A stretch of 64,000 bases of DNA, from positions 140,122,001-140,186,000 of the forward strand of contig CM059431.1 in assembly GCA_030390025.1 (NCBI GenBank), written 5' to 3'. A program made the translations under genes and the position numbers. The DNA is from Squalus acanthias (lineage: Eukaryota). Position 1 is the stretch's first letter, and each line of letters starts with the position of its first letter. The notes under the pieces were generated by a model. That model had not been told where the DNA came from. It did no database searches and saw only the letters and a list, made by a program, of their open reading frames with translations. Below, piece by piece: positions 39,471 through 61,757 of this stretch.

Positions 39471-42400
39471 TCTGTGTGTCCACAGATGCTGAATGTTTGC
39501 AGCATTTTCTGGTTTAACTTCATAATTAAAGCAACATAAATTTATTTATTTTCTTCCTATTGCGACTGATAAGGTTTGAAATTATTTAGAAACCCATTAT
39601 AAATAAAAGGCAAATAATCTACCGAATTAGTTTTCCTATACTGCCAAGAAGACAATGCACGCCATCTTTAAACGGTGATATTTTATTTTAATATAGTTTA
39701 TCATGTTGTATTTCAAAACTAAAACTTTGGTTATACAAGGAAAAACTAATAGTTTATTTCAAATACCTATCGACCTATAAATCAGACAGTTAACATCCGA
39801 AAACGCCCAATCCATTCAGGGTATTGTGTCAATTTGGTAGCAATGATGCACTTGGTAAATGTCTAAAAGGTAATGGAGTAATAAGACTAAATACTTAAGG
39901 AATTGATTCACCTGTAACAGTTATTCGCATCACTAATGACGTTAAACAGGCTGATATGACGAGAGAAGATGTGGCTGATTTAGTAGATGGTGAGATTGTT
40001 ATTGTACTGACCAGAGAAGATGTATTTGATTTAGTAGATGATAAAAGTGCTATTTTACTGACCAGTGAATATGTATCTGATTTAATAGATGGTGAAGGTG
40101 CTATTTTACTGACCAGAGAAGATGTATCATTTTGTAGATGGTGAGAGTGCTATTGTACTGACCAGAGAAGATGTATCTGATTTGGTAAATGATGAATGTG
40201 CTATTGTACTGACCAGAGAAGATGTATCTGATTCAGTAAATGATAAAGGTGCTATTGTACTGACCAGAGAAGCTGTATCAGATTTAGTAGGTGGTGACGG
40301 TGTTATTTTACTGACCAGAGAAGGTGTATCTGAGATAGTAAATGATGCAGGTGCTTTTGTACTGAACAGAGAAGATGTTTCTGCTTTAGTAGATTTTGAA
40401 GTTGCTATTTTACTGACGAGAGAAGATGTATCTGATCTAGTAGAATGTGTGGGTGTTATTGCACTAACCAGAGAAGATGTATCTGATTTAGTAGACGATG
40501 AAGGTGTTATTGAACTGACCAGAGAAGATGTATCTGATTTAGTAGATGGTGAAGGTGTTATTGTACTGACCAGAGAAGATGTATCTGATTAAGTAGATGG
40601 TGAGAGCGTTATTGTACTGACCAGAGAAGATGTATCTGATTCAGTAGATGGTGAAGGTGTTATTGTACTGACCAGAGAAGATGTATCTGATTAAGTAGAT
40701 GGTGAGAGCGTTATTGTACTGACCAGAGAAGATGTATCTGATTCAGTAGATGGTGAGAGTGTTATTGTACTGATCAGAGAAGTTGTATCTGAATTAGTAG
40801 GTGGTAAGGGTGTTATTGTACTGACCAGAGAAGATGTATCTGATTTATTGATGGTGAGTGTGTTATTGTACTGACCAGAGAAGATGTATCTAATTCATTG
40901 ATGGTGAGGGTGTTATTGTACTGACCAGAGAAGATGTATCTGATTTATTAGATGATGAAGGTGTTATTGTACTGACCAGAGAAGATGTATCTGATTTAGT
41001 AGTTAATGAAGGTGTTATTGTACTGACCAGAGAAGATGTATCTGATTTAGTAAATGTTGAAGGTGCTATTTTACTAACCAGAGAAGATGTATCTGATATA
41101 CTAGATGGTGAGTTTGTTATTGTACTGACCAGAGAAGATGTTTCTGATTTAGTATATGTTGAAGGTGCTATTGTACTGAACAGGGAAGATGTATCTGATT
41201 TTGTAGATGGTGAAGGTGTTATTGTACTGACCAGAGAACATGTATCTGATTTAGTAGATGATTTAGGTGTTATTGTACTGACCAGAGAAGCTGTATCTGA
41301 TTTTGTAGATGGTGAAGGTGTTATTGTACTGACCAGAGAAGCTGTATCTGATTTGGTAGATGGTGAAGGTGTTATTGTACTGACCAGAGAAGATGTATCT
41401 GATTTAGTAGATGATGAAGGTGTTATTGTACTGACCAGAGAAGCTGTATCTGATTTAGTAGATGGTGAAGGTGTTATTGTACTGACCAGAGAAGATGTAT
41501 CTGATTTAGTAGATGGTGAAGGGTGTTATTGTACTGACCAGAGAGTGTATCTCATTAGTATGAAGGTGCTATTGTATTGACCAAGAAGTGTATCTGATTT
41601 AGTAGATGATTTAGGTGTTATTGTACTGACCAGAGAAGCTGTATCTGATTTAGTAGATGGTGAAGGTGTTATTGTACTGACCAGTGAAGGTGTATCTGAT
41701 TTAGTAGATGGTAAAGGTGCTATTGTACTGACCAGAGAAGATGTATCTGATTTAGTAGATGGTGAAGGTGTTATTGTACTGAACAGAGAAGGTGTTTCTG
41801 ATTTAGTAGATGGTGAAAGTGTTATTGTACTGACCAGACAAGATGTTTCTGATTTAGTAGATGGTGAGGTTGTTATTTTACTGAACAGAGAAGATGTATC
41901 TGATTTCGTAGATGGTGAAGGTGTTATTGTACTGACCAAAAAAATATGTATCTGATTTAGTAGATGATGAAGGTGCTATTGTACTGACCAGAGAAGATGT
42001 ATCTGGTTTAGTAGCTGGAGCGGGTGTTATTGCACTGACCAGAGAGATGTATCTGATTTAGTCATGATTTAGGTGTTATTCTACTGACCACAGAAGTTGT
42101 ATCTGATTTAGTAGATGGTTTAGGTGTTATTGTACTGACCAGAGAAGCTGTATCTGATTTAGTAGGTTTTGAAGGTGTTATTATAATGACCAGAGAAGGT
42201 GCTTCTGATATAGTAAATGATGCAGGTGCTTTAGTACTGAACAGTAAAGATGTTTCTGCTTTAGTAGATTTTGAAGTTGCTATTTTACTAACGAGAGAAG
42301 ATGTATCTGATCTAGTAGAATGAGTGGGTGTTATTGCACTAACCAGAGAAGATGTATCTGATTTAGAAGATGATGAAGGTGTTATTGTACTGACCAGAGA

Positions 42401-45400
42401 AGATGTATATGATTTAGTAGATGGTGAGAGTGTTATTGTACTGACCAGAGAAGATGTATCTGATTTAGTAGAAGGTAAGGGTGTTATTGTACTGACCAGA
42501 GAAGATGTATCTGATTTATTGATGGTGAGGGTGTTATTGCACTGACCAGAGTAGATGTATCTGATTTATTAGATGACGAAGGTGTTATTGTACTGACCAG
42601 AGAAGATGTATCTGATTTAGTAGATGATGAAGGTGTTATTGTACTGACCAGAGAAGTTGTATCTGATTAAGTAAATGTTGCAGGTGCTATTGTACTAACC
42701 AGAGAAGATGTATCTGATCTACTAGATGGTGAGGTTGTTATTGTACTGACCAGAGAAGATGTTTCTGATTTAGTATATGTTGAAGGTGCTGTTGTACTGA
42801 ACAGAGAAGATGTATCTGATTTTGTAGATGGTGAAGGTGTTATTGTACTGACCGGAAAATTGTATTTGATTTGGTAGATGGTGAAGTTGTTATTGCACTG
42901 ACCAGAGAAGATGTATCTGATTTAGTAGATGGTGAGAGTGTTATTGTACTGACCAGAGAACATGTATCTGATTTAGTAGATGATTTAGGTGTTATTGTAC
43001 TGCCCAGTGAAGGTGTAACTGATTTAGTAGATGGTGAAGGTGCTATTGTACTGACCAGAGAAGATGTATCTGATTTCGTAGATGGTGAAGGTGTTATTGT
43101 ACTGACCAGTGAAGGTGTTTCTGATTTAGTAGATGGTGAAGTTGTAATTGTACTGACCAGAGAAGATGTTTCTGATTTAGTAGATGGTGAGGTTGTTATT
43201 GTACTGAACAGAGAAGATGTATCTGATTTATTAGATGTTGAAGGTGCTATTGTACTGACCAGAGAAGTTGTATCTGATTTAGTAGATGGTAAGGGTGTTA
43301 TTGGACTGACCAGAGAAGATGTATCTGATTTAGTAGATGGTAAGGGTGTTATTGTACTGACCAGAGAAGATGTATCTGATTTATTGATGGTGAGGGTGTT
43401 ATTGTACTGACAGAGAAGATGTATCTTATTTAGTAGATGATGAAGGTGCTATTTTACTGACCAGAGAAGGTGTATCTGATATAGTAAATGATGCAGGTGC
43501 TTTTGTACTGAACAGCGAAGATGTTTCTGCTTTAGTAGATTTTGAAGTTGATATTTTACTGACGAGAGAAGATGTATCTGATCTAGTAGAATGTGTGGGT
43601 GTTATTGCACTAACCAGAGAAGATGTATCTGATTTAGTAGATGATGAAGGTGTTATTGTACTGACCAGAGAAGATGTATCTGATTTAGTAGATGGTGAAG
43701 GTGTTATTGTACTGACCAGAGAAGATGTATCTGATTAAGTAGATGGTGAGAGTGTTATTGTACTGACCAGAGAAGATTTATCTGATTTAGTAGATGGTGA
43801 GAGTGTTATTGTACTGACCAGAGAAAATGTTTCTGATTTAGTATATGTTGAAGGTGCTATTGTACTGAACAGAGAAGATGTATCTGATTTTGTAGATGGT
43901 GAAGGTGTTATTGTACTGACCGGAGAATTGTATTTGATTTGGTAGATGGTGAAGTTGTTATTGCACTGACCAGAGAAGATGTATCTGATTTAGTAGATGG
44001 TGAGAGTGTTATTGTACTGACCAGAGAACATGTATCTGATTTAGTAGATGATTTAGGTGTTATTGTACTGACCAGAGAAGATGTATCTGATTTAGTAGAT
44101 GGTGAAGGTGTTATTGTACTGACCAGTGAAGGTGTTTCTGATTGAGTAGATGGTGAAGGTGTTATTGTACTGACCAGAGAAGTTGTATCTGATTTAGTAG
44201 ATGTTGAGAGTGTTATTGTACAGACCAGAGAAGATGTATCTGATTTAGTAGATGATGAAGGTGCTATTTTATTGACCAGAGAAGGTGTATCTGATATAGT
44301 AAATGATGCAGGTGCTTTTGTACTGAACAGAGAAGATGTTTCTGCTTTAGTAGATTTTGAAGTTGATATTTTACTGACGAGAGAAGATGTATCTGATCTA
44401 GTAGAATGTGTGGGTGTTATTGCACTAACCAGAGAAGATGTATCTGATTTAGTAGATGATGAAGGTGTTATTGTACTGACCAGAGAAGATGTATCTGATT
44501 TAGTAGATGGTGAAGGTGTTATTGTACTGACCAGAGAAGATGTATCTGATTAAGTAGATGGTGAGAGTGTTATTGTACTGACCAGAGAAGATTTATCTGA
44601 TTTAGTAGATGGTGAGAGTGTTATTGTACTGACCAGAGAAGATGTATCTGATTTTGTAGATGGTAAGGGTGTTATTTGTACTGACCAGAGAAGATGTAAC
44701 TGATTTATTGATGGTGAGAGTGTTATTGTACTGACCAGAGAAGATGTATCTGATTTATTGATGGTGAGGGTGTTATTGTACTGACCAGAGAAGATGTCTC
44801 TCATTTATTAGGAGATGAAGGTGTTATTGTACTGACCAGAGAAGATGTATCTGATTTAGTAGATGATGAAAGTGTTATTGTACTGACCAGAGAAGATGTA
44901 TCTGATTTAGTAAATGTTGAAGGTGCTATTGTACTAACCAGAGAAGATGCATCTGATTTAGTAGATGGTGAGGTTGTTATTGTACTGACCAGAGAAGATG
45001 TTTCTGATTTAGTATATGTTGAAGGTGCTATTGTACTGAACAGAGAAGATTTATCTGATTTAGTAGATGGTGAAGGTGTTATTCTACTAACCGGAGAAGT
45101 TGTATTTGATTTGGTAGAATGTGAAGTTGTTATTGCACTGACCAGAGAAGATGTATCTGATTTAGTAGATGGTGAGAGTGTTATTGTACTGACAAAAGAA
45201 CATGTATCTGATTTAGTAGATGATTTAGGTGCTATTGTACTGACCAGGGAAGATGTATCTGATTTAGTAGATGGTGAAGGTGTTATTTTACTGACCAGAG
45301 AAGATGTTACTGATTTAGTCGATGGTGTGGTGGTTATTGTACTGATTAGAGAAGATGTATCTGATTTATTAGATGGTGAAGGTGCTATTGTACTGAACAG

Positions 45401-46675
45401 AGAAGTTGTATCTGATTTAGTAGATGTTGAGAGTGTTATTGTACTGACCAGAGAAGATGTATCTGATTTAGTAGATGATGAAGGTGCTATTGTACTGACC
45501 AGAGAAAATGTATGTGGTTCATTAGCTGGAGCGGGTGTTATTGCACTGACCAGAGAAGATGTATCTGATTTTTTCATGATTTAGGTGTTATTGTACTGAC
45601 CAGAGAAGATGTATCTGATTTAGTAGATGATTTTGGTGTTATTGTACTGACCAGAGAAGATGTATCTGATATAGTAAATGATGCAGGTGCTTTTCTACGG
45701 AACAGAGAAGATGTTTCTGCTTTAGTAGATTACGAAGTTGCTATTTTACTGACGAGAGAAGATTTTTCTGATCTAGTAGAATGTGCGAGTGTTATTACAC
45801 TAACCAGAGAAGATGTAACTGATTTAGTAGATGATGAAGGTGTTCGAACAGAGAAGGTGTATCTGATTTAGTGGATGGTGAGGTTGTTATTGTACTGACC
45901 AGAGAAGATGCTTCTGATTAAGTATATGTTGAAGGTGCTATTGTACTGACCGGAGAAGTTGTATTTGCTTTGGTAGATGGTGAAGTTGTTATTGCACTGA
46001 CCAGTGAAGATGTATCTGATTTAGTAGATGGTGAGAGTGTTATTGTACTGACCAGAGAACATGTATATGATGTAGCAGATGATTTAGGTGTTATTGTACT
46101 GACTAGTGAAGATGTATCTGATTTAGTAGATGGTGAAGGCGTTATTGTACTGACCAGAGAAGGTGCAGCTGATTTAGTAGATGGTAAAGGCCTTATTGTA
46201 CTCACCAGTGAAGATGTATCTGACTTAGTAGATGGTGAAGATGTTATTGTGCTGACCAGAGAAGGTGTATCTGATTCAGTGGATGGTGAAGGTGTTATTG
46301 TACTGACCAGAGAAGATGTATCTGATTTAGTAGATGGTGAAGGTGTTATTGTACTGACCAGAGAAGATGTATCTGATTTAGTAGATGGTGAAGGTGTTAT
46401 TGTACTGATCAGAAAAGATGTATCTGATTTAGTAGATGGTGAAGGTGTTATTGTACTGACCAGAGAAGATGTATCTGATTTAGTAGATGGTGAAGATGTT
46501 ATTGTACTGATCAGAGAAGATGCATCTGATTTAGTAGATGGTGAAGGTGTTATTGTACTGACCCGAGAAGATGTATCTGATTTAGTAGATGGTGAAGGTG
46601 TTATTGTACTGATCAGAGAAGATGTATCTGATTTTGTAGATGGTGAAGGTGTTATTGTACTGACCCGAGAAGATG

Positions 46676-46952
46676 GGCTGGATTTTGTCTTGGGGTCAGG
46701 TTGGGGTCGTGTAATCTGCATTTCGTGTTTCCCCCCCGACTCCAGATTAATGTGGATGAATGATGCAATTTTCACTTAATTGGGCAATTGAGTTCCAGCA
46801 TGTGGGAACCCATGCACCAATTAGTGGTTTCAGTGGGAAAGTCGACTCTGATGATGTCATCATTGCAGGCTGCCTGGTATCAGAGAGGACCTGCCTGGCT
46901 TGCTTTTGATGTGAGTGGACCTGGATGCAAAATATTTGCGGGGGGGGGGCGG

Positions 46953-47017
<65 letters not shown>

Positions 47018-47305
47018 GGTGAGAGAGAGAGAAAGAGAGAGAGGTTTTTTTGCATCCAAGTCCTCTCACAGCAAAGGCCAGGCAGTCTAATACTACGACT
47101 ACCTTCATCACATCTCCGTTGTAATAGTGGACCTGCAGCTGATAGTCAGCTATCCACTTGTGCTCCCGCCAGGTTTCACTGGAGTGTTTCACACCAGGCG
47201 TACTACACGTCAGAAAAGGGTTAAACTAGCTAAAACGTTTCAAAATGGCATTACAGAGCCAATTTAGAGCTTGTTAAGGGCTTTAATGGCCTCTCCCGCC
47301 TCTTG
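46676..47305. mobile_element. Non-autonomous DNA-transposon-like insertion with internal (GA)n microsatellite
   Basis: Interrupts the 51-bp array; begins GGCTGGATTTT like other Harbinger-type ends; internal inverted repeat 46891-46932 / 47048-47086. Confidence 0.55.
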
Positions 47306-47799
47306 GCCAGAGATGATGTATCTGATTTCGTAGATGGTGAGAGTGTTATTGTACTGACCAGAGAAGATGTTTCTGATTTAGTAGATGGTGGGGTTGTTAT
47401 TGTACTGAACAGAGAAGATGTATCTGATTTATTAGATGGTGAAGGTGCTGTTGTATGACCAGAGAAGATGTTTTCTGATTTAGTAGATGGTGAAGTTGTT
47501 ATTGTACTGACCAGAGAAGATGTATGTGGTTTAGTAGATGGTGAGAGTGTCATTGTACTGACCAGAGAAGGTGTATCTGATTTAGTAGATGATTTAGGTG
47601 TTATTGTACTGACCAGAGAAGGTGTATCTGATTTAGTAGATGGTGAAGGGCTGTTGTACTGACCAGAGAAGTTGTATCTGATTTATTAGATGGTGAAGTT
47701 GTTATTGTACTGACCAGAGAAGATGTATCTGATTTAGTAGATGGTGAAGGTGTTATTGTACTGACCTAAGAAGGCGCATCTGATTTAGTAGATGGTGAG

Positions 47800-47900
47800 A
47801 ACAGAATTAACTCCCTCCACGGATGCTGCCTGGCCTGCTGAGTCTTTCCAGCGTTTTCTGCTGTTATTTCGGATTTCCAGCATCCGCAGTATTTTGCTAT
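47800..47900 (+). mobile_element. Short interspersed fragment (probably Penelope-type terminus) inserted in the 51-bp array
   Basis: ccacggatgctgcctggcctgctgagt...gatttccagcatccgcagtattttgct; related fragment at ~39475-39515. Confidence 0.5.
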
Positions 47901-48199
47901 CGTATCTGATTTAGTGGATGGTGAAGGTGCTATTATACTGACCAGTAAAGATATATCTGATTTAGTAGATGGTGAAGTTGTTATTGTACTGACCAGAGGA
48001 GGTGTATCTGATTTAGTAGATGGTGAGATTGTTATTGCACTGACCAGAGAAGGTGCATCTGATTTAGTAGATGGTGAAGGTGCTACTCTTCTCATCAGGG
48101 AAGAAGAATCTATGCTTAATGATATTGAGCTGTTGTTGAAATTGAGAGATGATGTTTCTGAATTAATAGATGATGAAGCTGTTACTCTACTGGCCTGGG

Positions 48200-48960
48200 G
48201 ATGATGTATCCTGATTTAGAGATGATGAACGTGCTGTAGTACTGACCTGGAATGTTGTAGCCTGATTAGTAGATGAGATTGGTACTATATTGAACTGGGA
48301 TAGCGTAGCCTGATTAATAGATGATGATGGTGCTGTATTGCTCTGGGATGGTGTAGTCTGATTTATAGATGATGATGGTGCTGTATTGACCTGGGATGGT
48401 GTAGTCTGATTTATAGAGGATGATGGTGCTGTATTGATCTGGGATGGTGCAGTCTGATTTATAGATGATGATGGTGCTGTATTGATCTGGGATGGTGTAA
48501 ACTGATTTATAGATGATGATGGTGCTGTACTGTCCTGGGATGATGTATTTTGATTTATAGAAGATGTTGGCGCTGTGTAGACCTGGGATGGTGTAATCTG
48601 ATTTATAGATGATGGTGGTGCTGTATTGACCTGGGATGGTGTAATCTGATTTATAGATGATAATGATGGTGTTGTATTGACCTGGGATGGTGTAGTCCGA
48701 TTTATAGATGATGGTGGTGCTGTACTGACCTGGGATGGGGAAGTCTGATTTATAGATGATGGTGTTGCTGTATTGACCTGGGATGGGGAAGTCTGATTTA
48801 TAGATGATGGTGGTGCTGCATTGAACTGGGATGGTGTTGTCTGATTTATAGATGATGATGTTGTTATATTGACCTGGGATGGTGTGGTCTGCTTTATAGA
48901 TGATGATGTTGTTATATTGACCTGGGATGGAGTAGTCTACTTTATAGATGATGAACGGAC
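48200..48960. repeat. 48-bp tandem repeat related to the 51-bp unit
   Basis: gatgatgatggtgctgtattgacctgggatggtgtagtctgatttata units. Confidence 0.9.
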
Positions 48961-49131
48961 TCTAGCACTGTCCTGGGATGTTTTAGACACCGCAAAAGTT
49001 AATGTCAACGCTGAATTTAAAGCCGGAAGCAGCATTGATCTCATAGTAACAACTGATGACTGTTGCATGGATCTACCTGTCAGGGAGGGTGGAAACACAT
49101 TGTTGTTTTCGGTCGATGATGGGGCCTTTGC

Positions 49132-50072
49132 CTAGTTGGAAGACGGAGGCACATTCACACTGTACAAGCTGGGCACACTCGCACTGCTCACGATAGGCAA
49201 AGTCTCACTGGTCTCGATGGGCACAGTCTCACTGTTCACGATGGGCACAGTCCCACTGTGCAAAATGGACATCGTTTCAGTGGTCACGATGGGCACAGTC
49301 TCACTAGTCACGATGGGCACAGTCTCACTGGTCACGATGGGCAGAGCTTCACTGGTCACGATGGGCACAGTCTCACTGGTCACGATGGGCAGAGTTTCAC
49401 TGGTCACGATGGGCACAGGCTCAGTGTTCACGATGGGCAGAGTCTCAGTGGTCACGATGGGCACACTCGCACTGATCACGATGGCCACAGTCTCACTGGT
49501 CACGATGGGTACAGTCTCTCCGGTCACGATGGGCACAGTCTCAGTGGTCACGATGGGCACAGTCTCACTGGTCACGATAGGCACAGTCTCACTGGTCACG
49601 ATGGGCACAGTCTCACTGGTCACGATAGGCACAGTATCACTGGTCACGATAGGCACAGTCTCACTGCTCACGATGGGCACAGTCTTACTGGTCACGATGG
49701 GCACAGTCTTACTGGTCACGATGGACACAGTCTCAGTGGTCACGATGGACATGGTCACACTGGTCATGAAGGGCACAATCGCACTGATCCAAGAATCCAT
49801 AATTGTGGATAAACTGAAAGCCACTAAGGATGCTGTAGAAGTTGGAGGCTGTGCTGTGGAACTGGGGTGTGGACCTGCTCTATCAAGTGAAGATGAGGTT
49901 TCCATTGATGAAGGGTGAATGGGCGATCGAGGCGCAGTTGAACGTCTCATGGACGTGGTTGTACTTTTGATGCGGTGGTTCACAATCCTGGAGTTGATAG
50001 AAAGTTGATTCTGGGATTCGGTGAGCGTTGGCAGCCCATTGGTCGCGGAATGCGCTCTGGTCATAGTTGTCA
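49132..50072 (-). CDS. Cobalamin-binding-family gene exon 7, open part: Ser/Thr/Pro-rich mucin-like tail with 8-aa repeats (SETVPIVT), to stop
   Basis: Strong acceptor tttctcctactttgcacag| at 50073/50072, phase 1, matching the exon 6 donor; in frame with ORF 49132..50175. Confidence 0.75.
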
Positions 50073-50629
50073 CTGTGCAAAGTAGGAGAAACAATGTCAA
50101 TAGATTATTGGAGGCAACGGGCAGTAAAGTTGGACTTGAGCGAAGACGGAAAACTGGGAGAATCGCATTTGCCAACCGTTTTGCAACACGCCTGATATTC
50201 GGTTCTGTTGGAAATAGTGGAATGAATATCGGGGTTTATAAAGAAAGAAACGGGCGACCGATGACATGCCGCCTGTTTTGCGCCCCTGCTCTTGTCGAAT
50301 TTCACCCACAACTTCTGGAGACACGCTCAAAATCAGCGCCTGTGAAAAGTGGAGCTCAGGTACAAACCAACTCTGCATTCCAGTTAGTGTGACCATTGTC
50401 ATATGTGAAGATCCCTGAGGATATCTACATTGGTGAACCTCCCGCTGGGATTGAGGCCAAGCAGATGGCTCAGGGCGTCCAATTATTTCACTTAGAAAAC
50501 TGAGCAAACATAAAGGATTCAGGAAGGTCAAGGTGTGAATGGGTAAAATCCCCACTTCAGTGCTCCTGGCAAATACCCTGGAGAAAATATCATGAAACTG
50601 GACAGTGATTTAAAACTAACAGACGATGA

Positions 50630-50860
50630 ATTGTTATGATCTGGAATGCACTGACTGAAAGTGTGGTGGAAGCAGATTCAATAGTCATTTCAAAGGGGAT
50701 TTGGATAAATATTTATAGAGGAAAACTGCAGGGCTATGGGGAGAGGGCAGGGCACTGGAACTAATTGGATTGCTCTTTCGAAGCGCCGACACAGGCACTA
50801 TGGGCGGAATGGCCTCATTCTACACTGTATCCTTCCAGGATTCATTTCCATTGGCTATTT
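50630..50860 (+). mobile_element. CR1 3' end fragment
   Basis: IWNAL.E.VVEADS...FKG.LD; gggctatgggg 3' UTR. Confidence 0.7.
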
Positions 50861-51080
50861 CTTCTGCATTTTGATTCCTAACCCCATGCGAGTAGCTTCC
50901 CATCTTTACAGCCTGGGACCAGCGCATCCAGGGAATTCTGGAGCTGAGCTTTGCATTCTGGGAACGGAACCTGCCCGATTTTCCTTCCGTTATTTTCGTT
51001 GCAGTTTTTTTTTGGGCCGTGTAACCTTCCCGTCACATTCTCCCTTATTTACCCCGCCTATGCAGCTCTTAAAGCTGAGA

Positions 51081-51269
51081 GGCGTGGTGAAATTCGATAT
51101 GGATGGGGAAGCGACACAGGAGCAATCGCTCTCACCAACCATTATAGACACGCCCGATATTCAGTTCTTTTGAAGTCAATGCGACCGAATATGGGGCGGA
51201 GCGGATATCGGGCGTCTGATGCGACACCGTCCATTTTGCGACCCCGCCAATGTCGAATTTCACCGTCCC
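51081..51269. mobile_element. MITE-like element
   Basis: Terminal inverted repeats ggtgaaattcga (51086) / tcgaatttcacc (51253-51264). Confidence 0.6.
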
Positions 51270-51303
51270 CCATACTTAGTCCGGTCTGTTGCTGTACCCT
51301 TAC

Positions 51304-51490
51304 CTTTATATACAGGACAGGTTATGTTGTTCACGTCCAGGTAACTCTTTCCTCCCAGGGCTATCGCCACCTGTGACATTGTTGTAAGGTTTTCCCAGTT
51401 TCCCCGAGAAATTTCATGCACCATTTTCTGCACAGATTTGGTGCAATTATAGACACGTGAGGTGAACACGTTTATGTTTTCGGCCAGGGC
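51304..51490 (-). CDS. Transcobalamin/intrinsic factor/haptocorrin-like gene, exon 6
   Basis: cag|...|gtaagg, 187 nt, phase 0 to 1; ALAENINVFTSRVYNCTKSVQKMVHEISRGNWENLTTMSQVAIALGGKSYLDVNNITC matches family pattern AL..WNC..I.QG.F.NP...Q..P.L.GKTYLD....C. Confidence 0.92.
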
Positions 51491-51739
51491 CTGGAGTGTA
51501 AAGAAAGTAACAATAATTTTAATATTTAATGTTAGTGATCCGGAGATCTTTCAATCGGAGCACATATGAATTCTGTTTGAAAGCACTGTAAGATAAAGTG
51601 GGGGTCAATGGAAATAAAAATCGGGAGATATTTACAAGGGCTGCGGATTCGCCATCACACATGTTACACCATCGCATGAAGTCAAAATCGACCCCCAGGT
51701 GCGTTCTGATCGGGTACAGTTTAGATTAGATTAGTGTGG

Positions 51740-52295
51740 AGACACCACACTTAGAGTACTGTGAATAGATCTGCTCTGGTTAGACCACACTTAGAGTAGC
51801 GTGCACAGCTCTGTTCTCCATATTACTAAAAAGATATAAAGGCACATCTTGAAGGTGCAATAAAACATTGGCAAGGATGATACCAGAATTCAGTGGTTAT
51901 AACAATTAGGAATGTCTGATCAGGAAAAGAGAAGACTGAGAGGTGAACTAAAAGACGTCTTCAAAATGATGAATGGATTTGATGAGGTTTCGGAGAGAAG
52001 ATATCTCCAGTTGCGGGGTGAGTCCAAAACTAGGGGCCATAAATATAAGATCGCCACTCATAAACCCAACAAAGAATTTAGGAGAAACTTCTTAACTAGA
52101 GAGTGGATAGAAGTTGTAACTCGCTCTCACAAGGAGTAGCAGAGGAGGTGAATAGCAAAGATTGATTTAAGGGGAATCTACATGAAGGAGAAAGGAATAG
52201 AAGGATATGGTGATAGGGTTAGTAGGGCGGGTGGAGCCTCGTGTGGCCCACAAACACACGAAAGGCCTGTTTCTGTACTGAAAATTCCATGTAAA
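51740..52295 (+). mobile_element. Degenerate CR1 3' fragment
   Basis: RPHLE, EKRRLRGEL, KTRGHKYK. Confidence 0.7.
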
Positions 52296-52902
52296 GATTG
52301 TCCTCTTTGAATTTGAAGTCAACTAGTTTCTCAATATAACAAAACCATCCTGTTTACATTGTTTCTCGCCACTTCAGTGTATTGATTTAATGAGCATTGA
52401 GTCATTCGCTTTCTTTTGTGGTAACTTTATCTTTGAGCGATGATGTACAATGGCCAATCTTGAATTAACCGGCCATTGTATACCACGCCCGATTTTCATT
52501 TGCATTGAATCAATGGAAGGTAAAATCGGGCGCCTGTAAATTGGAGAGCAATTGGATATTACCCATTTTACACCTTCACCAAAAGTTAAAATCACCCGTT
52601 CATCAAAAGTTAAAATCACCCCTTAACACTCTTCAAACAATGCCCTCCGCTCCTGCCGAGTTCTATCCCATGAATGGTATCGAGGTGTCTCCGAATCTTT
52701 CAACATGCTGTACTTTGCATTGCTTCACACTGAACGTCATCTGAACACGTTAGGCACCGATACACCAATATCTCAATATCGTTTCTAAGCTCTAATTGTT
52801 TACAGTCTATCGCTTAATGTGGTGTGAAGAAGCTGTTATTTACTAATTGTGCTTAGCTCGAATTAAACTAGAAACCTATTTTCTAATTTCACATCACCAT
52901 AC

Positions 52903-53078
52903 CTGCATGGCCAGCCCTGTACTGCTCAAGCTCCCAATAGGCCCGTCCTCTCTCACTTCACTTAGAATCCGCCTCATTATCCACATTATAGCCTTTGCGA
53001 TGTCAAGCCGAGATCTGCCTCTTGGTTGTTGTGAGTGTATCAGACACCTCAGACTAAGTGCCGCGGTGGCCATTGTAT
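52903..53078 (-). CDS. Transcobalamin/intrinsic factor/haptocorrin-like gene, exon 5
   Basis: tag|...|gtatgg, 176 nt, phase 1 to 0; DTMATAALSLRCL...ILSEVREDGPIGSLSSTGLAMQ matches DT.AMA.LAL.C and DG.IG.IYSTGLAMQ family signatures. Confidence 0.95.
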
Positions 53079-53119
53079 CTACAACACAGGAAACAATTAC
53101 CAACGGTTCATGGAGTAAA

Positions 53120-53445
53120 TTTGATAGGAGGGCCGGTAACGAGAGGACACAGATGTATGATATTGGCAAAAGAATCTGAGGGGAGATGGGGAGTCATTTT
53201 TGCTTTTTTACACAGCGAGCTGTTATAATCTGGAATGCACTGCCTGAACGCGTGATGGAAGCAGATTCAATGGTGACTTTGAAAAGGGAATTTGATATAT
53301 ACTTGATAAGGATAAAAATACAGGGCTATGGCTTATGGGGAAAGAGAATGGTGAGTGGGATTAATTGGTGAGCTATTTCAAAGAGCCACCACAGGTACGA
53401 TGGGCCGACTGGCCTCCTTCTGTAAGTTTGGCTGATTCTATGATA
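53120..53445 (+). mobile_element. CR1 3' end fragment
   Basis: FFTQRAVIIWNALPERVMEADS..TLKREFD..IQGYG. Confidence 0.8.
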
Positions 53446-53689
53446 TCCGAAGCCGACAAGGCAAGAGCGATCCGAGAACCCATTGATGAAGAGACGCTTC
53501 CCAAATTACCACTCGTTTTACTCTCAGCCGGTGTCCAATGGACTCCCAGCACAAGTTTACCAATCACTGATTGCAGCAACACGGCCTTGTCCCGACTACA
53601 GAATTGTGCAAGTCTTAGGTTGGAATTGAATTGGGAGTAATGGGGACAAGACTGAAACGATGAAATGCTTCTTGTAATAATACATGCAA

Positions 53690-53817
53690 GGGGTGAAATT
53701 GCACTTGGGCGGGAACGCAATACAGGCGGAATCGCATTTTACGACCGTTATGGGACCAGGCCCGATATTTACTTCTTTTGGCCGTTTTGCGGCCCCGCCC
53801 AGGTCCAATTTCAGCGC
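53690..53817. mobile_element. MITE-like element (Harbinger-type ends)
   Basis: ggggtgaaattgcacttgggcggg / cccgcccaggtccaatttcagcgc inverted termini. Confidence 0.6.
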
Positions 53818-53926
53818 TGACTCTTCACCAATCGTAACTTGTGAACTGGGGTAACCGCCTTCAAAACTCCATCAAATGGATATTATTGAAACTGTAAAAT
53901 GAAACGTCTTGTCTGCTCAGACACAC

Positions 53927-54082
53927 CTACTGTTAATTCTTTCCCGTGTTGAGCGATCTTCCTGAGATGAGCCCGGATAAAATTATGAATGAGAAAGCCC
54001 GGGACAGGTTCCTCCTCCTGACACAGCGCCAGGATCGCCAGGCTGGCTTCAGTAAAGGCCTTGAGAGAATATCCAGCGTTTT
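53927..54082 (-). CDS. Transcobalamin/intrinsic factor/haptocorrin-like gene, exon 4
   Basis: tttgcag|...|gtgtgt, 156 nt, phase 1 to 1; ENAGYSLKAFTEASLAILALCQ...ELTV(D) matches SLAILALCQ and xSVD family motifs. Confidence 0.9.
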
Positions 54083-54224
54083 CTGCAAATACAGTGACAG
54101 ACTCCAATGTTAGTGATGTGCTCCACATCTGAATAACGGGAACTACAGATGTGAAAATTCCTCCCTAGTTCGTTCCCGATCCTCTCTGTGTGACAGAAAT
54201 CAGGCCAAGGATTTAAATGAATTA

Positions 54225-54520: not shown

Positions 54521-54544
54521 GGCTTTCCAGTCCATATGACCAAT

Positions 54545-55990
54545 CATAGAAACATAGAAACATAGAAAATAGGTACAGGAGTAGACCATTCGGTCCTTCG
54601 AGCCTGCACCACCATTCAATGCGTTCATGGCTGAACATGCTACCTCAGTACCCCATTCCTGCTTTCTCGCCATACCCCTTGATCCCCCTAGTTGTGAGTG
54701 TTATATCTAACTCCCTTTTGAATATATTTAGCGAACTGGCCTCAACAACCTTCTGTGGAAGAGAATTCCATAGATTCACCACTCTCTGGGTGAAGAAGTT
54801 CCTCCTCAGCTCAGTCTTAAATGGCTTCCCCTTAATCCTTAAACTGTGACCCCTGGTTCTAGTTTTCCCTAACATTGGGAACATTCTGCCCGCATCTAAT
54901 TTGTCTAAACCAGTCAGGATTTTAAATGTCTCTATAAGATCCCCCCTCATTCTTCTGAACTCCAGAGGATACAAGTTCAGTTGACCCAATCTTTCTTGAT
55001 ATGTCAGTCCGGCCATCCCAGGAATCAATCTAGTGAACCTTCGCTGCACTCCCTCAATAGCAAGAATGTCCTTCCTTAAGTTAGGAGACCAAAACTGCGC
55101 ACAATACTCCAGGTGTGGCCTCACCAAGGCCCTGTACAACTGCAGCATCACCTCCCTACTCCTGTACTCAAATCCCCTTACTATGAAGGCCATCATTCCG
55201 TTTGCTTTCTTGACTGCCTGCTGCACTTGCATTCCCACCTTCAGTGACGGATGTACCATGACGCCCAGGTCTCGTTGCACCTCCCCTTTCCCTAATCTGC
55301 CACCATTCAGGTAATAGTCCGCCTCTCTATCTTTACCACCAAAGTGGATAACCTCACATTTATCCACATTGTACTTCATCTGCCATACATTTGCCCATTC
55401 ACCCAACCTGTCCAAGTCACTCTGTAGCCTCCTAGCATCCTCCTCATTGTTCACACTGCCTCCCAATTTAGTGTCATCCGCAAATTTGGAGATATTACAT
55501 TTAATCCCTTCGTCCAAATCATTAATATATAATGTAAACAGCTGGGGTCCCAGCACCGAACCCTGCGGTACCCCGCTGGTCACTGCCTGCCATTCTGAAA
55601 AGTACCCATTTACTCCTACTCTTTGTTTCCTGTGTGCCAACCAGTTCTCAATCCACGTCAACACATTACCCCCAATCCCATGTGCTTTAACTTTGCTCAC
55701 CAATCTCTTGTGTGGGACCTTGTCGAAGGCCTTCTGAAAGTCCAAATACACCACATCTACTGGTTCCCCCCTGTCCACCCTATTGGAAACATCCTCAAAA
55801 AATTCCAGAAGATTTGTCAAGCATGATTTCCCTTTCACAAATCCATGCTGACTTGGACCTATCATGTCGCCACTTTCCAAATGGTCTGTTATGACATCTT
55901 TAATAATTGCTTCCATCATTTTACCCACGACCGATGTCAGGCTGACCGGTCTATAATTCCCTGCTTTCTCCCTCCCTCCTTTTTTAAAAA
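54545..55990 (-). mobile_element. Young 5'-truncated CR1 LINE with uninterrupted 427-aa RT/C-terminal ORF, in intron 3 of the gene
   Basis: ORF 54645..55928 with all RT motifs; (catagaaa)n tail at ~54545-54570. Confidence 0.97.
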
Positions 55991-55991
55991 G

Positions 55992-56510
55992 ATGTCATCA
56001 TTGATGTCCAGCTAAATTCTACTATGAGAATTATCACCGGTACGCTTTTAATGACACCAACATCTTGGCTGCCCGTCCTTGCAAACATCACACCAACACA
56101 CCTACGCCACGATTATGCAGTGTCCATAGAAAACAACCGCTACACCAGCAAAGACATGCCAATCCAGGCGGACTTGAACAACCTACTACCAAACAGTCCC
56201 TAATCTAGAAGGCCATCTTGGAGCGTCGCCAAAGCCCTTCGGTGATCTCCTTAATGACCGATGGCTAAATAATTGGAAGAACTGTGACATACGGAATGGA
56301 TTCCTTATAGAGGACCCCACAGTACAACCTGAAGGATCAAACCTTCCTTGCTACCAGTGGACAATCATCAACCGCCTCATAACTGGTCATGGTAGATGCT
56401 GCCATCTTCTCCATTGATGGAAGATTAAAGAATCCCCATCATGCGACTGTGAAGCTCCCGAACAGACCCTGGAGCACATCACTGAGCACTGGAAATTCTC
56501 AGGCAGCGTA
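55992..56510 (+). mobile_element. Vingi/Ingi-group LINE C-terminal fragment
   Basis: DVQLNSTMRIITGTL..TP..WLPVLANI.P.HLR and NRLITGHGRC..LLH*WKIKESPSCDCEAPEQTLEHI zinc-knuckle-like end. Confidence 0.7.
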
Positions 56511-57000
56511 CATAAGAACCTAATTAATAGGAGCAGGAGCTTGACACTTCGAACATACTCCACAATTCAATAAGATCATGGCTGATCTTCTACCTCATCT
56601 CCACTTTCCTGCACTATCCCCATATCCCTAGTTTCATTTAATTTTCAAAAATCTATCGATCTCTGTCTTGAATGTACTCAACGACTGAGCCTCCACAGCC
56701 CTCTTAGGTAGAGAATTCCAAAGATTCACCACCCTCTGAGTGAAGAAATGTCTCCTCATCTCAGTCCTAAATGGCGGACCTCTTATTTTGAGACTGTGAC
56801 CCCTGGTTCTAGACTCCCCAGCCAGGGGTAACATCCTCCCTACATCTACCCAGTCAATCCCTGTAAGAATGTTGTATGTTTCAATGAGATCACCTCTCAT
56901 TCTTCTAAACTCTAGAGAATATAGGCCGAGTCTACTCAATCTTTTCTCATAGGACAATCCCCCCCATCCCAGGAACCAGTCTGGTGAATCTTCGTTGCAA
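56510..57000 (-). mobile_element. CR1 3' fragment
   Basis: ORF 56634..56957: SLEFRRMRGDLIE, FFTQRVVNLWNSLP. Confidence 0.9.
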
Positions 57001-57589
57001 GAAATTCACGCTGTTTCACTGGAGTCTTTGGCTTTGATATCTGATTTAGATATTGAGATTTGACTTGCTTTGCTACTAACATACAAAAGAAGAAGAAGTA
57101 CTGAATACCTTATATTATTGGCCCCTAATTATAGTCTCCTCTTCAAGTGGAAACATCTGTTCTACTTCAACCCTGTAGAAACACTTCATTATTTTAAAAA
57201 CCTCTATTAGCTCACCTCTCAATCATCTCTTTTCCAGATGAAAGAGCCCCAGCCGGTTCAGCCTTTCTTGATAAATAACATAGATAATAATAGATGAATA
57301 AATAAATGCAACAAGGGTTTTATTTCACGGATATCATCATAAATCATTGCCTTTATAAACCAGGAGTCAGCGTTCCGATTCCCTTTAGGCCTGGTGTCAA
57401 TTGGTTCTTTTAAAAAGTGTTGGATAAATATTTGCCCTTTAATGGGTTTGGAGATAATGGGAATAGATACAAACTGTGAGAGTAATTATATTGGTGTTTA
57501 CAGGGACAGATATGAACTGAGAAGGCAGTGGGATTGGAGGTTATGGGGAGCCGCCGAATGTTATGGGAATAGAACCGGAAATTGTTGCG

Positions 57590-58215
57590 ATTAAAGCAGA
57601 CTGAGGTGAGAATGAGGCTGGAGGTTATGGCGGGAGCCACAGATTGGGTGTGATTGGAGGTTATAGGGACAGGTACAGACTGAGATGTGTGTGTGATTGG
57701 AGGTTATAGGGACAGGTACAGACTGAGATGTGAGTGTGATTGGAGGTTATAGGGACAGGTACAGACTGAGATGTGAGTGTGATTGGAGGTTATGGGGGCA
57801 GGAATAGAATGAGATATGAGTGTGACTGGAGGATATGGAGAGAGGTACAGACTGAGATGTGAGTGTGATTGGGGTTATAGGGACAGGTACAGAATGAGAT
57901 GTGAGTGTGATTGGATGTTATAGGGACAGGTACAGAATGAGATGGGAGTGTGATTGGATGTTATAGGGACAGATACAGATGAGATGTGAGTGTGATTGGA
58001 GGTTATGGGGAGAGGTACAGACTGAGATGGGGGTGTGATTGGAGGTTATAGGGCCAGGTACAGTCTGAGATGTGAGTGTGATTGGAGGTTATGGGGACAG
58101 GTAGAGACTGAGATATGAGTTTGATTGGAGGTTATGGAGTGAGGTACAGCCTGAGATGTGAGTGTGATTGCAGGTTATGGGGACAGGTACAGACTGAGAT
58201 GTTCCTGTGATTGGT
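57590..58215. repeat. 43-bp minisatellite (GATTGGAGGTTATAGGGACAGGTACAGACTGAGATGTGAGTGT)
   Basis: Units at 57652, 57695 and onward. Confidence 0.9.
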
Positions 58216-58295
58216 GGTTTTCAGCTTGTGTTTGCTGAAAGATGCCTCTCAATCTCTATGCAAATAACATGCCTAAAGCATGAGTCCACACTTAC

Positions 58296-58466
58296 CTTTA
58301 GAAGATGTTATCCTAGGTATTTGGTGCAATTCACTGTACAGCCTCTCACGGAGCACCTCCACCAAATTCACCTCCTTGTTTCCTGCCGATATCTTGGCGG
58401 AGTTCCGACAAGAGGATCTGAAGGCTAAGATGTAGAAAACCAACTGGTCTATGGGGAAGTGTTCAC
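58296..58466 (-). CDS. Transcobalamin/intrinsic factor/haptocorrin-like gene, exon 3 (not in ORF track)
   Basis: ccgccag|...|gtaagt, 171 nt, phase 1 to 1; GEHFPIDQLVFYILAFRSSCRNSAK...NLVEVLRERLYSELHQI matches GQL.L.ILAL.SSC..P family motif. Confidence 0.9.
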
Positions 58467-59389
58467 CTGGCGGCAGAGGAACAAACGAGATTCAGTTTGT
58501 TCTGACTGGGTCCATCAATAACTAACTGGTTAGTGATTATAAATTCCTCTTCTACACTCTGAAGACTTGTATTAATATTCTTCCTTATTCTAACTCTCAA
58601 AAACGATTCAAAGTGCTTCAAGTGTAATAAATTATTTGGAAGTGCAGACATTCTTGTTATATCGACCAATTCGGGAGCCATTTTGTGGACAGCAATATCC
58701 CACAAATAGCAATGAAGTGAATAGCCAGGGAACCAGTTTTAAATTCTTAACCGGCGACACGGTAAATAGATTAACTGCTAATGTATCTCATTAGTACTTG
58801 TGGCATCTTGTGTCCAATTAGTTGTCGAGTTTGTCTATGAAAGATAAATGGCTGCATTTCATTGGCTGTGAAGCAAAGGCACTACAGAAATGTAAGTTTC
58901 TCCCCCTTCACTCTCCTCTCTCTTTAAACTACTTTGGGTGTTAGCTGGGGAATAAATGTTGTCCAAGACCCCGGCAGCACTCTCCCTTCTTGTTCCAATA
59001 AAGCCGTGGCATCTTCAAATTCCACAAGAAAAGATTCAGGGGATAATTTTAGATTTAAACGATGTTGTAAAATAACCGACACCAAAATGGCCTCCGATTA
59101 TAGATCCCGCCCGATGTTCACCTCCATTGGAAAGGAAAATCAAGCGTGGTGTAAAAGGGCGTCTGCTGCAATTTAGAGCAAGGGGCAGGGTAATGATTTC
59201 TGATTTCAAAACAATGAGAGGACAAGAAGTAAAACCTACGTGCAGGATGGGCGATATAGGGTTTAGGTGGAAGAACAGAGGAATGTTTAGAGCTGCGAAA
59301 TAATTTCCATCATAGTATCATGACCAAAGCTGCTGCAATAAATGACAGCTCGGCCCATTCACCTGAGGGGAGAATTCCAGCTAGAAGTC

Positions 59390-59680
59390 TCCCTCCCTCC
59401 CTCTCTTCATCTTCCTCAGTATGTGTCTGTTTCTCTCTTTCTCCGTCTCACTGTTTCTCTTTCTCAAACACACACACATACACATACACACAGAAACGTA
59501 CAGACTCGGATATATATGCACCTACATACACATATAAACACATACAGACACGTATACACACAGAGAAACACATATGCATACAGAAGCACAGACACACAGA
59601 AACGCAGAGACATACACACACACAATCGCAAATAATCCCACAGAAAGATACACACAAACACACGCAAACATATACAGAAA
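59390..59680. repeat. CT- and CA-rich low-complexity sequence
   Basis: Degenerate dinucleotide runs. Confidence 0.8.
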
Positions 59681-60367
59681 CTTCAATGGCACATTGCTGC
59701 AAATTAATCCCTGGGATCTTGATTCAAATGGTTGAGAAATTGTGTAATGTAATAAAGTGAACTGCACTGGGGAAAAGAAGGAGAATCGCATGAGGTGTGT
59801 TAACTTTCAACATTGGCTCTCACAAAATAGGCGCTATCGACAGTCATATTAGCTGCTATTTTTAAATTAACCTATGTATTTTAAATGGACGAGGACCTCT
59901 ATTCGGAACATTGGAATTGCTGGGGCGGGTAAAGACCAAGGTGCATCTAGTTCTTCTTCTACCATCCATGTAGTCTCATGATACAATGACAATGGGATTG
60001 TTGTCTAATCATAGTAATCAGTCTCTATAAATCAGTCTACATCAGACACAGACATGAGGCGAGGAATACCCGGTGCTGGAGAGCTTTGTGAACCATCGGT
60101 CCAAAATCACCTGTTCCTCTCAAGCACGCTACACTGACCATGTGTAACATCTCAAATTACACATATACTCTATCCCAAATGTTATGATCTGATATCAAAT
60201 AGAGCAATATGACATGAACGGGCTACAAGTTGGTTCATTTGTATCATGGGGCTATTCTTAGGTTCCAATTTCCTTCATTAACAATAGTTTGCCAAACACT
60301 TAACCTGTCAGTAAAAATAAAGATTTAATCCAGATACATCCACATTAACTAATAGATTAAAGCTTAC

Positions 60368-60550
60368 CTGCCCCCACCTTTCTAACAACCGCCTCACTCA
60401 GCCTTCGGAGAATGTCTTGTTCACTCTGTAGATCATGCTCACTCCCCAGGCGTAGGGCAATGAAAGCCCCGGGGTCTGGCTCCACGGACAGATCACTCGG
60501 TTTCCTCTCTATACTACGGATAAGTGATTTCTGCTGATTATCTGGAGCCG
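60368..60550 (-). CDS. Transcobalamin/intrinsic factor/haptocorrin-like gene, exon 2
   Basis: ttccag|...|gtaagc, 183 nt, phase 1 to 1; APDNQQKSLI...EPDPGAFIALRLGSEHDLQSEQDILRRL matches .PNPS..I.LRL family pattern. Confidence 0.88.
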
Positions 60551-60689
60551 CTGGAATCCACAACCGAATTATTAATCCACTCGCGTGTAAGGAACATTAA
60601 GATAGCAGTAACACTTAAAGAGATTGAGGATAATCAGAAGGCGCATGTGGCAGGTGAACACAACATATGCACATACAGTAAGAACATGT

Positions 60690-61595
60690 ATTGTAGTAAA
60701 CAGTAAGGACGATAGTAGCAGACTTCAGGAGGACACAGACAGACTGGTGCAATGGGCAGTCACATTGTAAATGACATTCAATGCAGAGAAATCTGAAATG
60801 GTGCATTTTGAATGAAGAATGAGGAGAGTTAATATAAACCAAATAGTACAATTGTATTAGGGGCGCAGGAAGAGAGAGACCTCGGGTTCACGTACACTAA
60901 TCTGTGACGGTGGCAGGACTTACTGACAAATCTTTAAAAAAAACATGACGGGATACGTGGCTTTCCAAATAGATGCACAGAGTAGAAAAGCAAAGAATTT
61001 GCGGCAAAGGTTTATTAATCATTAGTTATGCTTCTGTTAGTGCATTGTGACCAATCCTGAGCAACACACTTTAGTCAAAGCCTTGGAGAGGGTGCAGAGG
61101 AGATTTACCGGAATGGTAGCAGGGATGAGGGACTTCAGTTATGTGGAGAGACTGATGAAGCTGGGATTGTTCTCCTTAGCGTAGAAAAGGTTAAAGGGAG
61201 ATTTAATAGAGATGATCAAAATCATGAAGAGTTCTGATAGAGTAAATAAGAAGAAAGTGCTTCCACTGGCAGGAGATTCAGTGTCAGAGGACACACACTT
61301 AAAGTAACTGGCAAAAGAACCAACGGGGGTGGGGGGGGGGGGGGGTGGAAATAGGAGATTTAAAAAAAAATCATCAATGTTGCTGCGATCTGGAATGCAT
61401 TGCCTGAAATGGTGATAGAAACATATTCAATACTAACTTTCAAAATGGGAATAGGATGAGTACATGAAGAGGAAACGGGGCAGGGATTTGGGGAAGAGCA
61501 GGGTGGGTGGGACTAATTACTCTTTCAGAGAGCAGGCAGAGGTACGGTGGGCCGAATGGGCTCCTTCTGCACTTAAGGTTCCATGATTCTATAAT
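60690..61595 (+). mobile_element. Degenerate CR1 3' portion
   Basis: LERVQRRFTGM..GMRDFSYVERL.KLGLFSL; IWNALP; attctat tail. Confidence 0.8.
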
Positions 61596-61687
61596 TCTTT
61601 GATTCTAAATTACGATAAAAACTCAGCTAAAGGATAAACATCAGGTTTAGGTTAAACACTGGGAACCAAACAACAAATCGCACTTAC

Positions 61688-61757
61688 TGTATTGTTGGGA
61701 TGTTGCCGGGTACGAGGCACTGAAGAGCAGGAGTGTGAGGGTCATCACCGGGGGCAT
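61688..61757 (-). CDS. Transcobalamin/intrinsic factor/haptocorrin-like gene, exon 1 (signal peptide)
   Basis: acaATG MPPVMTLTLLLFSASYPATSQQY, 70 nt, phase-1 donor gtaagt; alternative ATG at 61745. Confidence 0.7.

Follow-up and report, generated by a model that had tools for sequence, protein, structure and literature searches.

Alpha-domain exons and the putative terminal exon

A stretch of 64,000 nucleotides from Squalus acanthias (assembly GCA_030390025.1, contig CM059431.1, positions 140,122,001 to 140,186,000; hereafter the window) contains, on its minus strand, a gene of the cobalamin (B12) carrier family, followed in the direction of transcription by Thr/Ser/Pro-rich tandem repeats. 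The gene begins with six GT–AG exons between positions 61757 and 51304, which have end phases 1, 1, 1, 1, 0 and 1 and contain no stop codon in the spliced model. An earlier note on this DNA, made from the letters alone, had described the same exons and phases, and these were exactly reproduced. Exon borders were guided by the nearest protein, a Mustelus asterias sequence annotated 'cobalamin binding intrinsic factor-like' (XP_078087636.1, P0003). Stop-to-stop translation of 51.2–64 kb yields six cobalamin-carrier-like pieces, and those holding exons 2–6 match the Pfam family Cobalamin_bind (PF01122) in order, over a profile span of 21–300 of 317. The cut-off of 25 bits is passed singly by the exon 5 and exon 6 pieces only; exons 2–6 are also matched by tblastn with 87 family proteins. 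The earlier note had assigned these exons to a transcobalamin/haptocorrin/intrinsic-factor alpha domain and had named the profile search in advance as a check, and the five exon pieces matching in order bear the assignment out.

Exon 1 (61757–61688) opens with the ATG at 61757, codes for a hydrophobic N-terminus and ends in phase 1 at the donor TACA/GTAAGT (the slash marks the splice point). Its translation, MPPVMTLTLLLFSASYPATSQ, looks like a signal peptide. The alpha domain starts in exon 2 (60550–60368; PF01122 21–80, 17.9 bits; 62.9% identity to the Mustelus protein) and continues through exon 3 (58466–58296; 90–128, 20.4 bits; 61.4%), exon 4 (54082–53927; 121–181, 18.0 bits; 69.2%), which carries the KAFTE motif discussed below, and exon 5 (53078–52903; 178–241, 44.4 bits; 77%). 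Exon 6 (51490–51304; 238–300, 42.6 bits; 73.5%) contains the end of the domain (…GGKSYLDVNNITCPVYK) and finishes in phase 1 at 51304 with the donor AAAG/GTAAGG. The product of exons 1–6 is 314 residues long, comprising the N-terminus and the alpha domain. Over 291 aligned columns, the window and Mustelus proteins are 69% identical, with values of 61–77% per exon.

A proposed terminal exon, exon 7 (50072–49132), extends from a predicted splice at 50072 through 313 codons to a TAG at 49134–49132. The acceptor, ...CTTTGCACAG/TG (in longer context, ttgtttctcctactttgcacag/TG), is present in phase 1, matching exon 6, has pyrimidines at 16 of the 20 upstream positions and, by a crude pyrimidine-tract score, is level with the gene's best acceptors. 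The frame from 50072 is open for 941 bases, which gives 313 codons and a full model of 627 residues (314 + 313). Exon 6 most likely joins 50072 in phase 1, which would add the tail to the alpha domain.

The tail consists of a unique part of about 95 codons and about 27 copies of TSETVPIV, the latter encoded by an indel-free 24-bp tandem array within exon 7 (49148–49786, minus strand, 26.6 copies). It is composed of 19% Thr, 16% Ser, 15% Val, 10.5% Pro and 10% Ile, so that Ser and Thr together make up 35.5%, and Val and Ile 25%. The 282 unique bases of exon 7 are open in the required frame only, the other two frames holding 4 and 2 stops. The repeat had been called mucin-type in the earlier note, and Thr/Ser/Pro-rich tandem repeats do lie on the gene's strand; with 25% Val and Ile and no mucin domain found, however, the term is generous, and the tail is mucin-like at best. 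An AlphaFold2 prediction of the tail alone, made without an alignment, gave a mean predicted local distance difference test score of 38.3, which is compatible with disorder but uninformative. A word search with the 312-residue tail among longer proteins returned a 689-residue protein from a Logan assembly. It has a lipoprotein-like N-terminus and linker repeats of the APVVTSE type, and was rejected as low-complexity convergence.

The 627-residue model holds five cysteines, at positions 104, 162, 205, 268 and 310. Residue 24, at the 61688/60550 junction (the best splice), is Thr; the Mustelus (…EQC-MTPDNQQ) and Narcine (…LC-APVALE) proteins carry a Cys there, just ahead of the part encoded by exon 2. 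One cysteine may therefore be unpaired, because five remain after the replacement.

Relatives of the window protein and the missing beta domain

An exhaustive HMMER search with the Mustelus protein returned 86 relatives, with a protein of the ray Narcine bancroftii (XP_069792302.1, P0004) as the second best; a protein word search with the same query among proteins of similar length returned the query alone. A maximum-likelihood tree of 77 rows was computed with a quick IQ-TREE search, with branch support from the Shimodaira–Hasegawa-like approximate likelihood ratio test (SH-aLRT) only. Proteins shorter than 250 residues, P0050 and the multi-stretch or chimeric rows P0024, P0032, P0037, P0046, P0053, P0064, P0083 and P0084 were omitted. 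The window protein falls into one clade with two Mustelus rows and the Narcine row (SH-aLRT 100, stem length 0.94), so that the phylogeny proposed in the earlier note places it in a beta-less group. The sister group (SH-aLRT 96) is made up of six alpha-only rows with short ends from Pristiophorus, Hypanus and Hemitrygon. Sharks and rays occur in each of the two subclades, so that the absence of the beta domain probably predates the shark–ray split, provided that the models are complete.

The Narcine protein, named 'mucin-2-like' in RefSeq, is 993 residues long and matches PF01122 at 72–374 and no other Pfam family. Its alpha domain is 49% identical to that of Mustelus and is followed by an open tail of 619 residues in imperfect repeats (15% Thr, 12% Val, 11% Pro and 10.5% Ser). 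Chance would hardly leave imperfect repeats open for 619 codons. Between this tail and that of the window, blastp gives an alignment with E 9e-10 (composition-corrected), and motifs of the types VPIVT, LPVVT and LSVVS occur in both. A model from the bamboo shark Chiloscyllium punctatum (GCC19399.1) likewise joins alpha exons to a Thr/Pro/Val-rich tail. The evidence for the tail from the window alone is modest; that from the comparison with relatives is stronger.

The beta domain (DUF4430, PF14478), which completes the two-domain carriers, was sought in several ways. It was not found by Pfam in 150 of the 152 minus-strand open reading frame (ORF) pieces of 27.9–40.1 kb, nor by tblastn of the 87 family proteins against the 64-kb window. 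A beta-domain hidden Markov model (HMM), which recognises 60 of 96 family proteins, gave a best E of 5.7 on 2578 six-frame pieces of the window. With the same HMM, the beta domain is absent from all 10 proteins of the window's clade and its sister clade. A wider Pfam scan covered 75 pieces drawn from the 144 that have at least 75 residues and lie away from the locus, as well as two intron-3 pieces, with pieces in other tandem arrays excluded. It recovered RVT_1 and DDE_Tnp_4 only, so that the rest of the window consists, among the scanned ORFs, of such fragments and minisatellites. Mucin accessory domains (VWD, C8, TIL, CK and SEA) or a membrane anchor had no Pfam match among the scanned pieces (150 + 75). 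On the tblastn, beta-HMM and Pfam results, the idea that the window contains another carrier gene, or an exon for a beta domain, was rejected. The earlier note had proposed that the short linker between the alpha and beta domains had expanded into a mucin. Because no beta domain was found in the window or in the clade, the repeat is instead a C-terminal tail, and that proposal is unsupported, although a beta exon beyond the window is conceivable.

A repeat does occur at the linker position of a two-domain paralogue. In the horn shark Heterodontus francisci (XP_067874885.1, P0011), residues ~270–345 form a Pro/Thr/Ser/Leu-rich repeat (…LPSPNLTLPSPNLTL…) in the alpha–beta linker; because of this, linker expansion such as the earlier note had proposed may occur in another branch of the family.

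The motif that contacts the corrin ring is altered as well. At the position of TNYYQ, the window protein has KAFTE, Mustelus KTFNE and Narcine KVLTE, and all four rows of the clade depart from the form [TS]x[YF][YF]Q that most of the 77 aligned rows have. The Mustelus orthologue is matched to carrier structures (2PMV, E 1.2e-21; 4KKI, 2.6e-17; 2BB6, 7.3e-14).

On the whole, we lean towards an intact gene of an elasmobranch-specific, beta-less branch of the carrier family, in which the alpha domain would be followed by a mucin-like tail and, past the stop, by non-coding minisatellites. Several observations weigh against this reading. The openness of the 282 unique bases is only slightly unusual: 397 of 5000 dinucleotide shuffles are equally free of stops, as are 71 of 1296 intron windows (p ~0.05–0.08). 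The open 640-base 24-bp array is unremarkable here, since a non-coding 39-bp array (26747–27744) is open on both strands over 998 bases. No synonymous excess exists among the repeat units; array 1 has 12 synonymous and 45 non-synonymous differences, with an expected synonymous fraction of 0.28, and in the test on the 48-bp array described below, the 210 differences in 720 bases probably reflect a rigid cutting that was out of step with the units. The acceptor at 50072, on which the earlier note had settled and which has the phase described there, is not the sole plausible one. Eight other candidates lie between exon 6 and 50072, of which seven (51074, 50733, 50654, 50577, 50499, 50444 and 50339) give short tails of 2–21 codons; the candidate at 50204 leads into the same frame as 50072. 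Both Mustelus RefSeq models, XP_078087636.1 (330 residues) and XP_078087635.1 (372 residues), end 2 or ~70 residues past exon 6 without a repeat tail, and in one of them the sequence homologous to the beginning of exon 7 is translated in a different frame (SDNYDYSVFDDQ, as against SDNYDQSAFRDQ in the window). The Narcine and Chiloscyllium proteins are predictions themselves, and the latter counts for little because its exons 5–6 are read out of frame. Finally, the changed motif alone is no proof of lost B12 binding, because human intrinsic factor, with SAFYG at this position, departs from the consensus too.

Much of this speaks for an alpha-only product, in which exon 6 would be read through (…CPVYKGKGTATDRTKYGGR-stop) or joined to some other, short terminal exon, and in which every Thr/Ser/Pro repeat, the 24-bp array included, would be an ordinary non-coding minisatellite that happens to lie downstream. 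The seven acceptor candidates with short tails, the tail-less Mustelus models and the lack of codon-level constraint in arrays 1 and 2 would fit such a product, as would the six of six alpha-only rows in the sister clade and the wealth of minisatellites in the window (units of 21, 27, 34, 39 and 43 bp, some of them open for ~1 kb). The Narcine tail, however, is open in frame with an alpha domain and aligns with the tail of the window, and the in-phase acceptor at 50072 scores as the gene's best. Moreover, three arrays with unit lengths that are multiples of 3 (24, 48 and 51 bp) lie on the gene's strand and are Thr/Ser/Pro-rich, the first two in the frame of exon 7. We regard the alpha-only product as a serious though unlikely alternative.

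Repeat arrays downstream of exon 7 and elsewhere in the window

Past the first TAG, the frame of exon 7 remains open for 64 codons (48937–49131) up to a second TAG at 48939–48937. It then runs for 249 codons through a 48-bp array (48198–48954, 15.6 copies; SSINQTTPSQVNTAPP), which is thus separated from exon 7 by two TAGs, before a frameshift near 48216. The first 51-bp arrays follow (47307–48085, 9.7 + 3.6 copies), with an in-frame TAG and one 50-bp unit, and are succeeded by a unique interruption of ~600 bp inside the 51-bp array (46700–47310), which contains a (GA)45/(CT)n run and a C run. The main 51-bp array (39957–46675, 132 copies; STKSDTSSLVSTITPSP) is untranslatable, with stops and 1-bp deletions that recur in higher-order blocks. 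All of these features are described on the minus strand. When compared by eye, the consensus units of the 48-bp and 51-bp arrays given by Tandem Repeats Finder (TRF) look related at the DNA level.

The position of the two TAGs raises the possibility of a tail longer than 313 residues, in which a splice inside the repeats, or another allele, would drop both stops and the 48-bp array (249 codons) or more would be translated. The stretch 49131–48190 keeps the frame of exon 7, with the two TAGs only between open runs. Of the frame-keeping GT...AG pairs that span both TAGs, 349 pass a filter that requires the frame to stay open either as far as 48190 or for 150 codons from the junction, but none of them has a convincing consensus, and repeats supply GT and AG by chance. 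Near 48216 the frame is then lost to the frameshift, and at least 26 more disruptions come after it. A longer tail therefore seems to us quite improbable.

The earlier note had gone further and described a single open repeat exon of ~10.2 kb, from 50072 to 39912. For this assembly, that claim is refuted. The three frames of the interval 50072–39912 are interrupted by 151, 170 and 130 stops. The longest open run, of 312 codons, comes first; only the initial 941 bases are open, and the rest contains at least 28 additional disruptions. A dynamic-programming path, with a cost of 1 for each frame switch and 1 for each stop crossed, cannot cross the 10.16 kb with fewer than 29 disruptions, of which 27 fall within the 51-bp arrays. 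The + strand of the arrays was also tried as coding and was rejected, as it needs 48 disruptions.

The giant exon of ~3,400 residues between the alpha domain and further exons could be rescued if the lesions were assembly errors or belonged to a null allele. The 51-bp consensus unit reads as 76% Ser, Thr and Pro on the gene's strand, and a donor-like CAG/GTGAAT is present at 39912, at the end of the array, as the earlier note had stated, although the exon that it should close is not open. Unique non-coding DNA in the window is also disrupted about three times as densely (~9 per kb) as the claimed exon (2.9 per kb). Such a density is not peculiar to the claimed exon, however. The 21-bp G-rich array has 2.5–3.3 disruptions per kb and the 39-bp array has none over 998 bases on either strand; near-open repeats are therefore ordinary in this window and provide no evidence of coding. 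The lesions themselves are shared among units. An anchor scan gave 143 unit spacings, of which 124 are 51 bp, 11 are 50 bp and two are 52 bp, and spacings of 49, 44, 93, 100, 126 and 694 bp occur once each, the last being the ~600-bp unique interruption. Eight exact 51-bp units contain an in-frame stop, and six of these carry the identical ACT-TAA-TCA. Blocks that start at the TAA units (44558, 43743 and 40597) are 91–95% identical over ~620 bp; neighbouring units are 78% identical. Because they were copied with these blocks and lie outside homopolymer runs, the stops and 1-bp deletions are inherited variants and not random read errors. Together with the unique interruption, and with no downstream exon or beta domain found in the 39.9 kb, this leaves the giant exon very unlikely.

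Nonsense codons and decay in the tail region could also mean that the whole gene is silent or becoming a pseudogene, with the alpha exons intact only through recent loss; the odd number of cysteines and the Thr where Mustelus and Narcine have Cys would agree with this. Against it, the six exons have neither stop nor frameshift, all splice sites are intact, and the terminal branch of the window protein is short (0.13 vs 0.55 for Narcine). We consider the loss of the gene highly improbable.

If the favoured reading is correct, the arrays past the stop are probably the decayed remains of a formerly longer repeat exon which continued to expand, or minisatellites seeded from such an exon. The most economical origin of the 48-bp and 51-bp arrays would be a longer repeat exon that was shortened by nonsense mutations and then expanded as a non-coding minisatellite; it is also conceivable that these arrays were never coding.

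Other repeats occur within the gene. Intron 3 contains a reverse-transcriptase fragment of the long interspersed nuclear element type (54648–55994, minus strand; PF00078, 1.1e-34) and a 43-bp minisatellite (57641–58219, 13.5 copies). Pieces of dispersed repeats in introns (50530–50825, 52010–52305 and 53194–53489) have very high summed contig depth at 90–95% likeness in three runs with the same species label, and probably belong to an abundant family that resembles short interspersed nuclear elements. These runs are small, with a word share of 0.00, and within 49790–54200 they cover the dispersed-repeat pieces only, so they say nothing about the expression of exons 4–7. Translations similar to 'ICFHH.F.QCIPD' recur at 61426, 53266 and 50677.

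Outside the gene, the 21-bp G-rich minisatellite occupies 4 kb (22343–26399, 186 copies), with a GC content of 0.60–0.63 and a GC skew of ~0.6. It is flanked by 39-bp arrays (20471–21117 and 26747–27744), the TRF consensus units of which are, by eye, mutual reverse complements; the whole would then be a large inverted structure, with a block that could form G-quadruplexes at its centre. At the edge of the window, a 27-bp array (24–1255 and 1272–1795) changes at ~1260 from G-rich to its C-rich complement, as a head-to-head inverted minisatellite. A 34-bp minisatellite (5032–7868, 83 copies) adjoins reverse-transcriptase fragments (3953–5085). Upstream of exon 1, a tandem array (~62950–64000) gives repeated 'YSVPLS..LHSPPDIQSHYRP' translations in all frames.

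Meaning and comparison with known carriers

In the favoured reading, exons 1–6 would provide a signal-peptide-like N-terminus and the alpha domain, and splicing of exon 6 to 50072–49132 would yield the 627-residue product. Its tail is predicted to be extended and probably O-glycosylated. The protein itself is expected to be a mucin-like glycoprotein, secreted and headed by an alpha barrel that has either been re-purposed or depends on a partner. It is unlikely to act alone as a classical high-affinity B12 carrier, because it has no beta domain and its alpha domain carries an altered corrin-contact motif. A more specific proposal is that sharks and rays retain an entire clade of beta-less half carriers, one branch of which joined the alpha barrel to a mucin-like tail. 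The alpha head, held in mucus or another secretion, might pair in trans with a separate beta protein, as a split B12 clamp that mirrors the teleost Tcnb proteins, or might have acquired a new ligand or a role as a receptor decoy. This proposal is doubtful at present.

All three mammalian B12 carriers are two-domain clamps. A conserved elasmobranch branch with the alpha half alone, extended by a glycoprotein-like tail in at least one ray model and probably here, would, if true, demonstrate that the alpha barrel is reusable by itself; it would form a counterpart to the beta-only teleost binders and bring a so far undescribed group of paralogues into the history of early jawed-vertebrate B12 transport. 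The locus also holds a warning for annotation: in minisatellite-rich shark genomes, a repeat beside a gene should not be taken for a mucin exon merely on the ground that it reads as Ser/Thr/Pro.

The earlier note knew of no description of this architecture, and our literature search likewise brought up nothing on a form that lacks the beta domain or has a repeat tail; it gave only PMC4350170, on two-domain chondrichthyan binders. In RefSeq, the architecture occurs solely in the automatic, misleadingly named model of the Narcine protein. That protein belongs to the same clade, its alpha domain passes directly into a Thr/Val/Pro/Ser-rich tail with related motifs, and it has no beta domain. By contrast with the 313 residues of the window, with their near-perfect 8-residue repeats, its tail has 619 residues in imperfect repeats. 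The N-terminus of this automatic prediction lacks a signal peptide, probably owing to a faulty 5' end. The Mustelus proteins (XP_078087636.1 and XP_078087635.1) are the closest in sequence and likewise have the alpha domain only, but their models stop just past exon 6 or enter the exon 7 homologue in a different frame, and have no repeat tail.

The vertebrate carriers TCN2, TCN1 and CBLIF are known from structures (2BB5/2BB6, 4KKI and 2PMV), and B12 is gripped mainly by the beta half. The window protein shares with them an alpha domain of the same family (PF01122, the family fold being an alpha6/alpha6 barrel) and, at the end of exon 6, …GKSYLDV..C, which corresponds to the end of their alpha domain; its N-terminus looks secretory. 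It differs in that the window has neither a beta domain nor a two-domain clamp, in that a repeat tail stands in the place of their short linker, and in having KAFTE for TNYYQ. According to Lopes-Marques et al. 2014 (PMC4350170), carriers hold B12 between the alpha and beta domains, and TNYYQ, in haptocorrin, is the alpha-domain motif that forms hydrogen bonds with the corrin ring.

The same paper describes chondrichthyan Tcn2, Tcn1/Gif and a divergent Tcn3 of the little skate. As divergent, lineage-specific paralogues among cobalamin binders, these are comparable to the branch described here. All of them have two domains, however, and a beta-less or repeat-tailed form is not mentioned in the available portion of that paper (PMC4350170). 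The teleost proteins Tcnba and Tcnbb offer the opposite case. They too are single-domain derivatives of the two-domain family and, as stated in a review (PMC10778862), lack the alpha domain and still bind cobalamin with high affinity. In these teleost proteins it is the beta half that was kept, whereas the window protein has the alpha half only.

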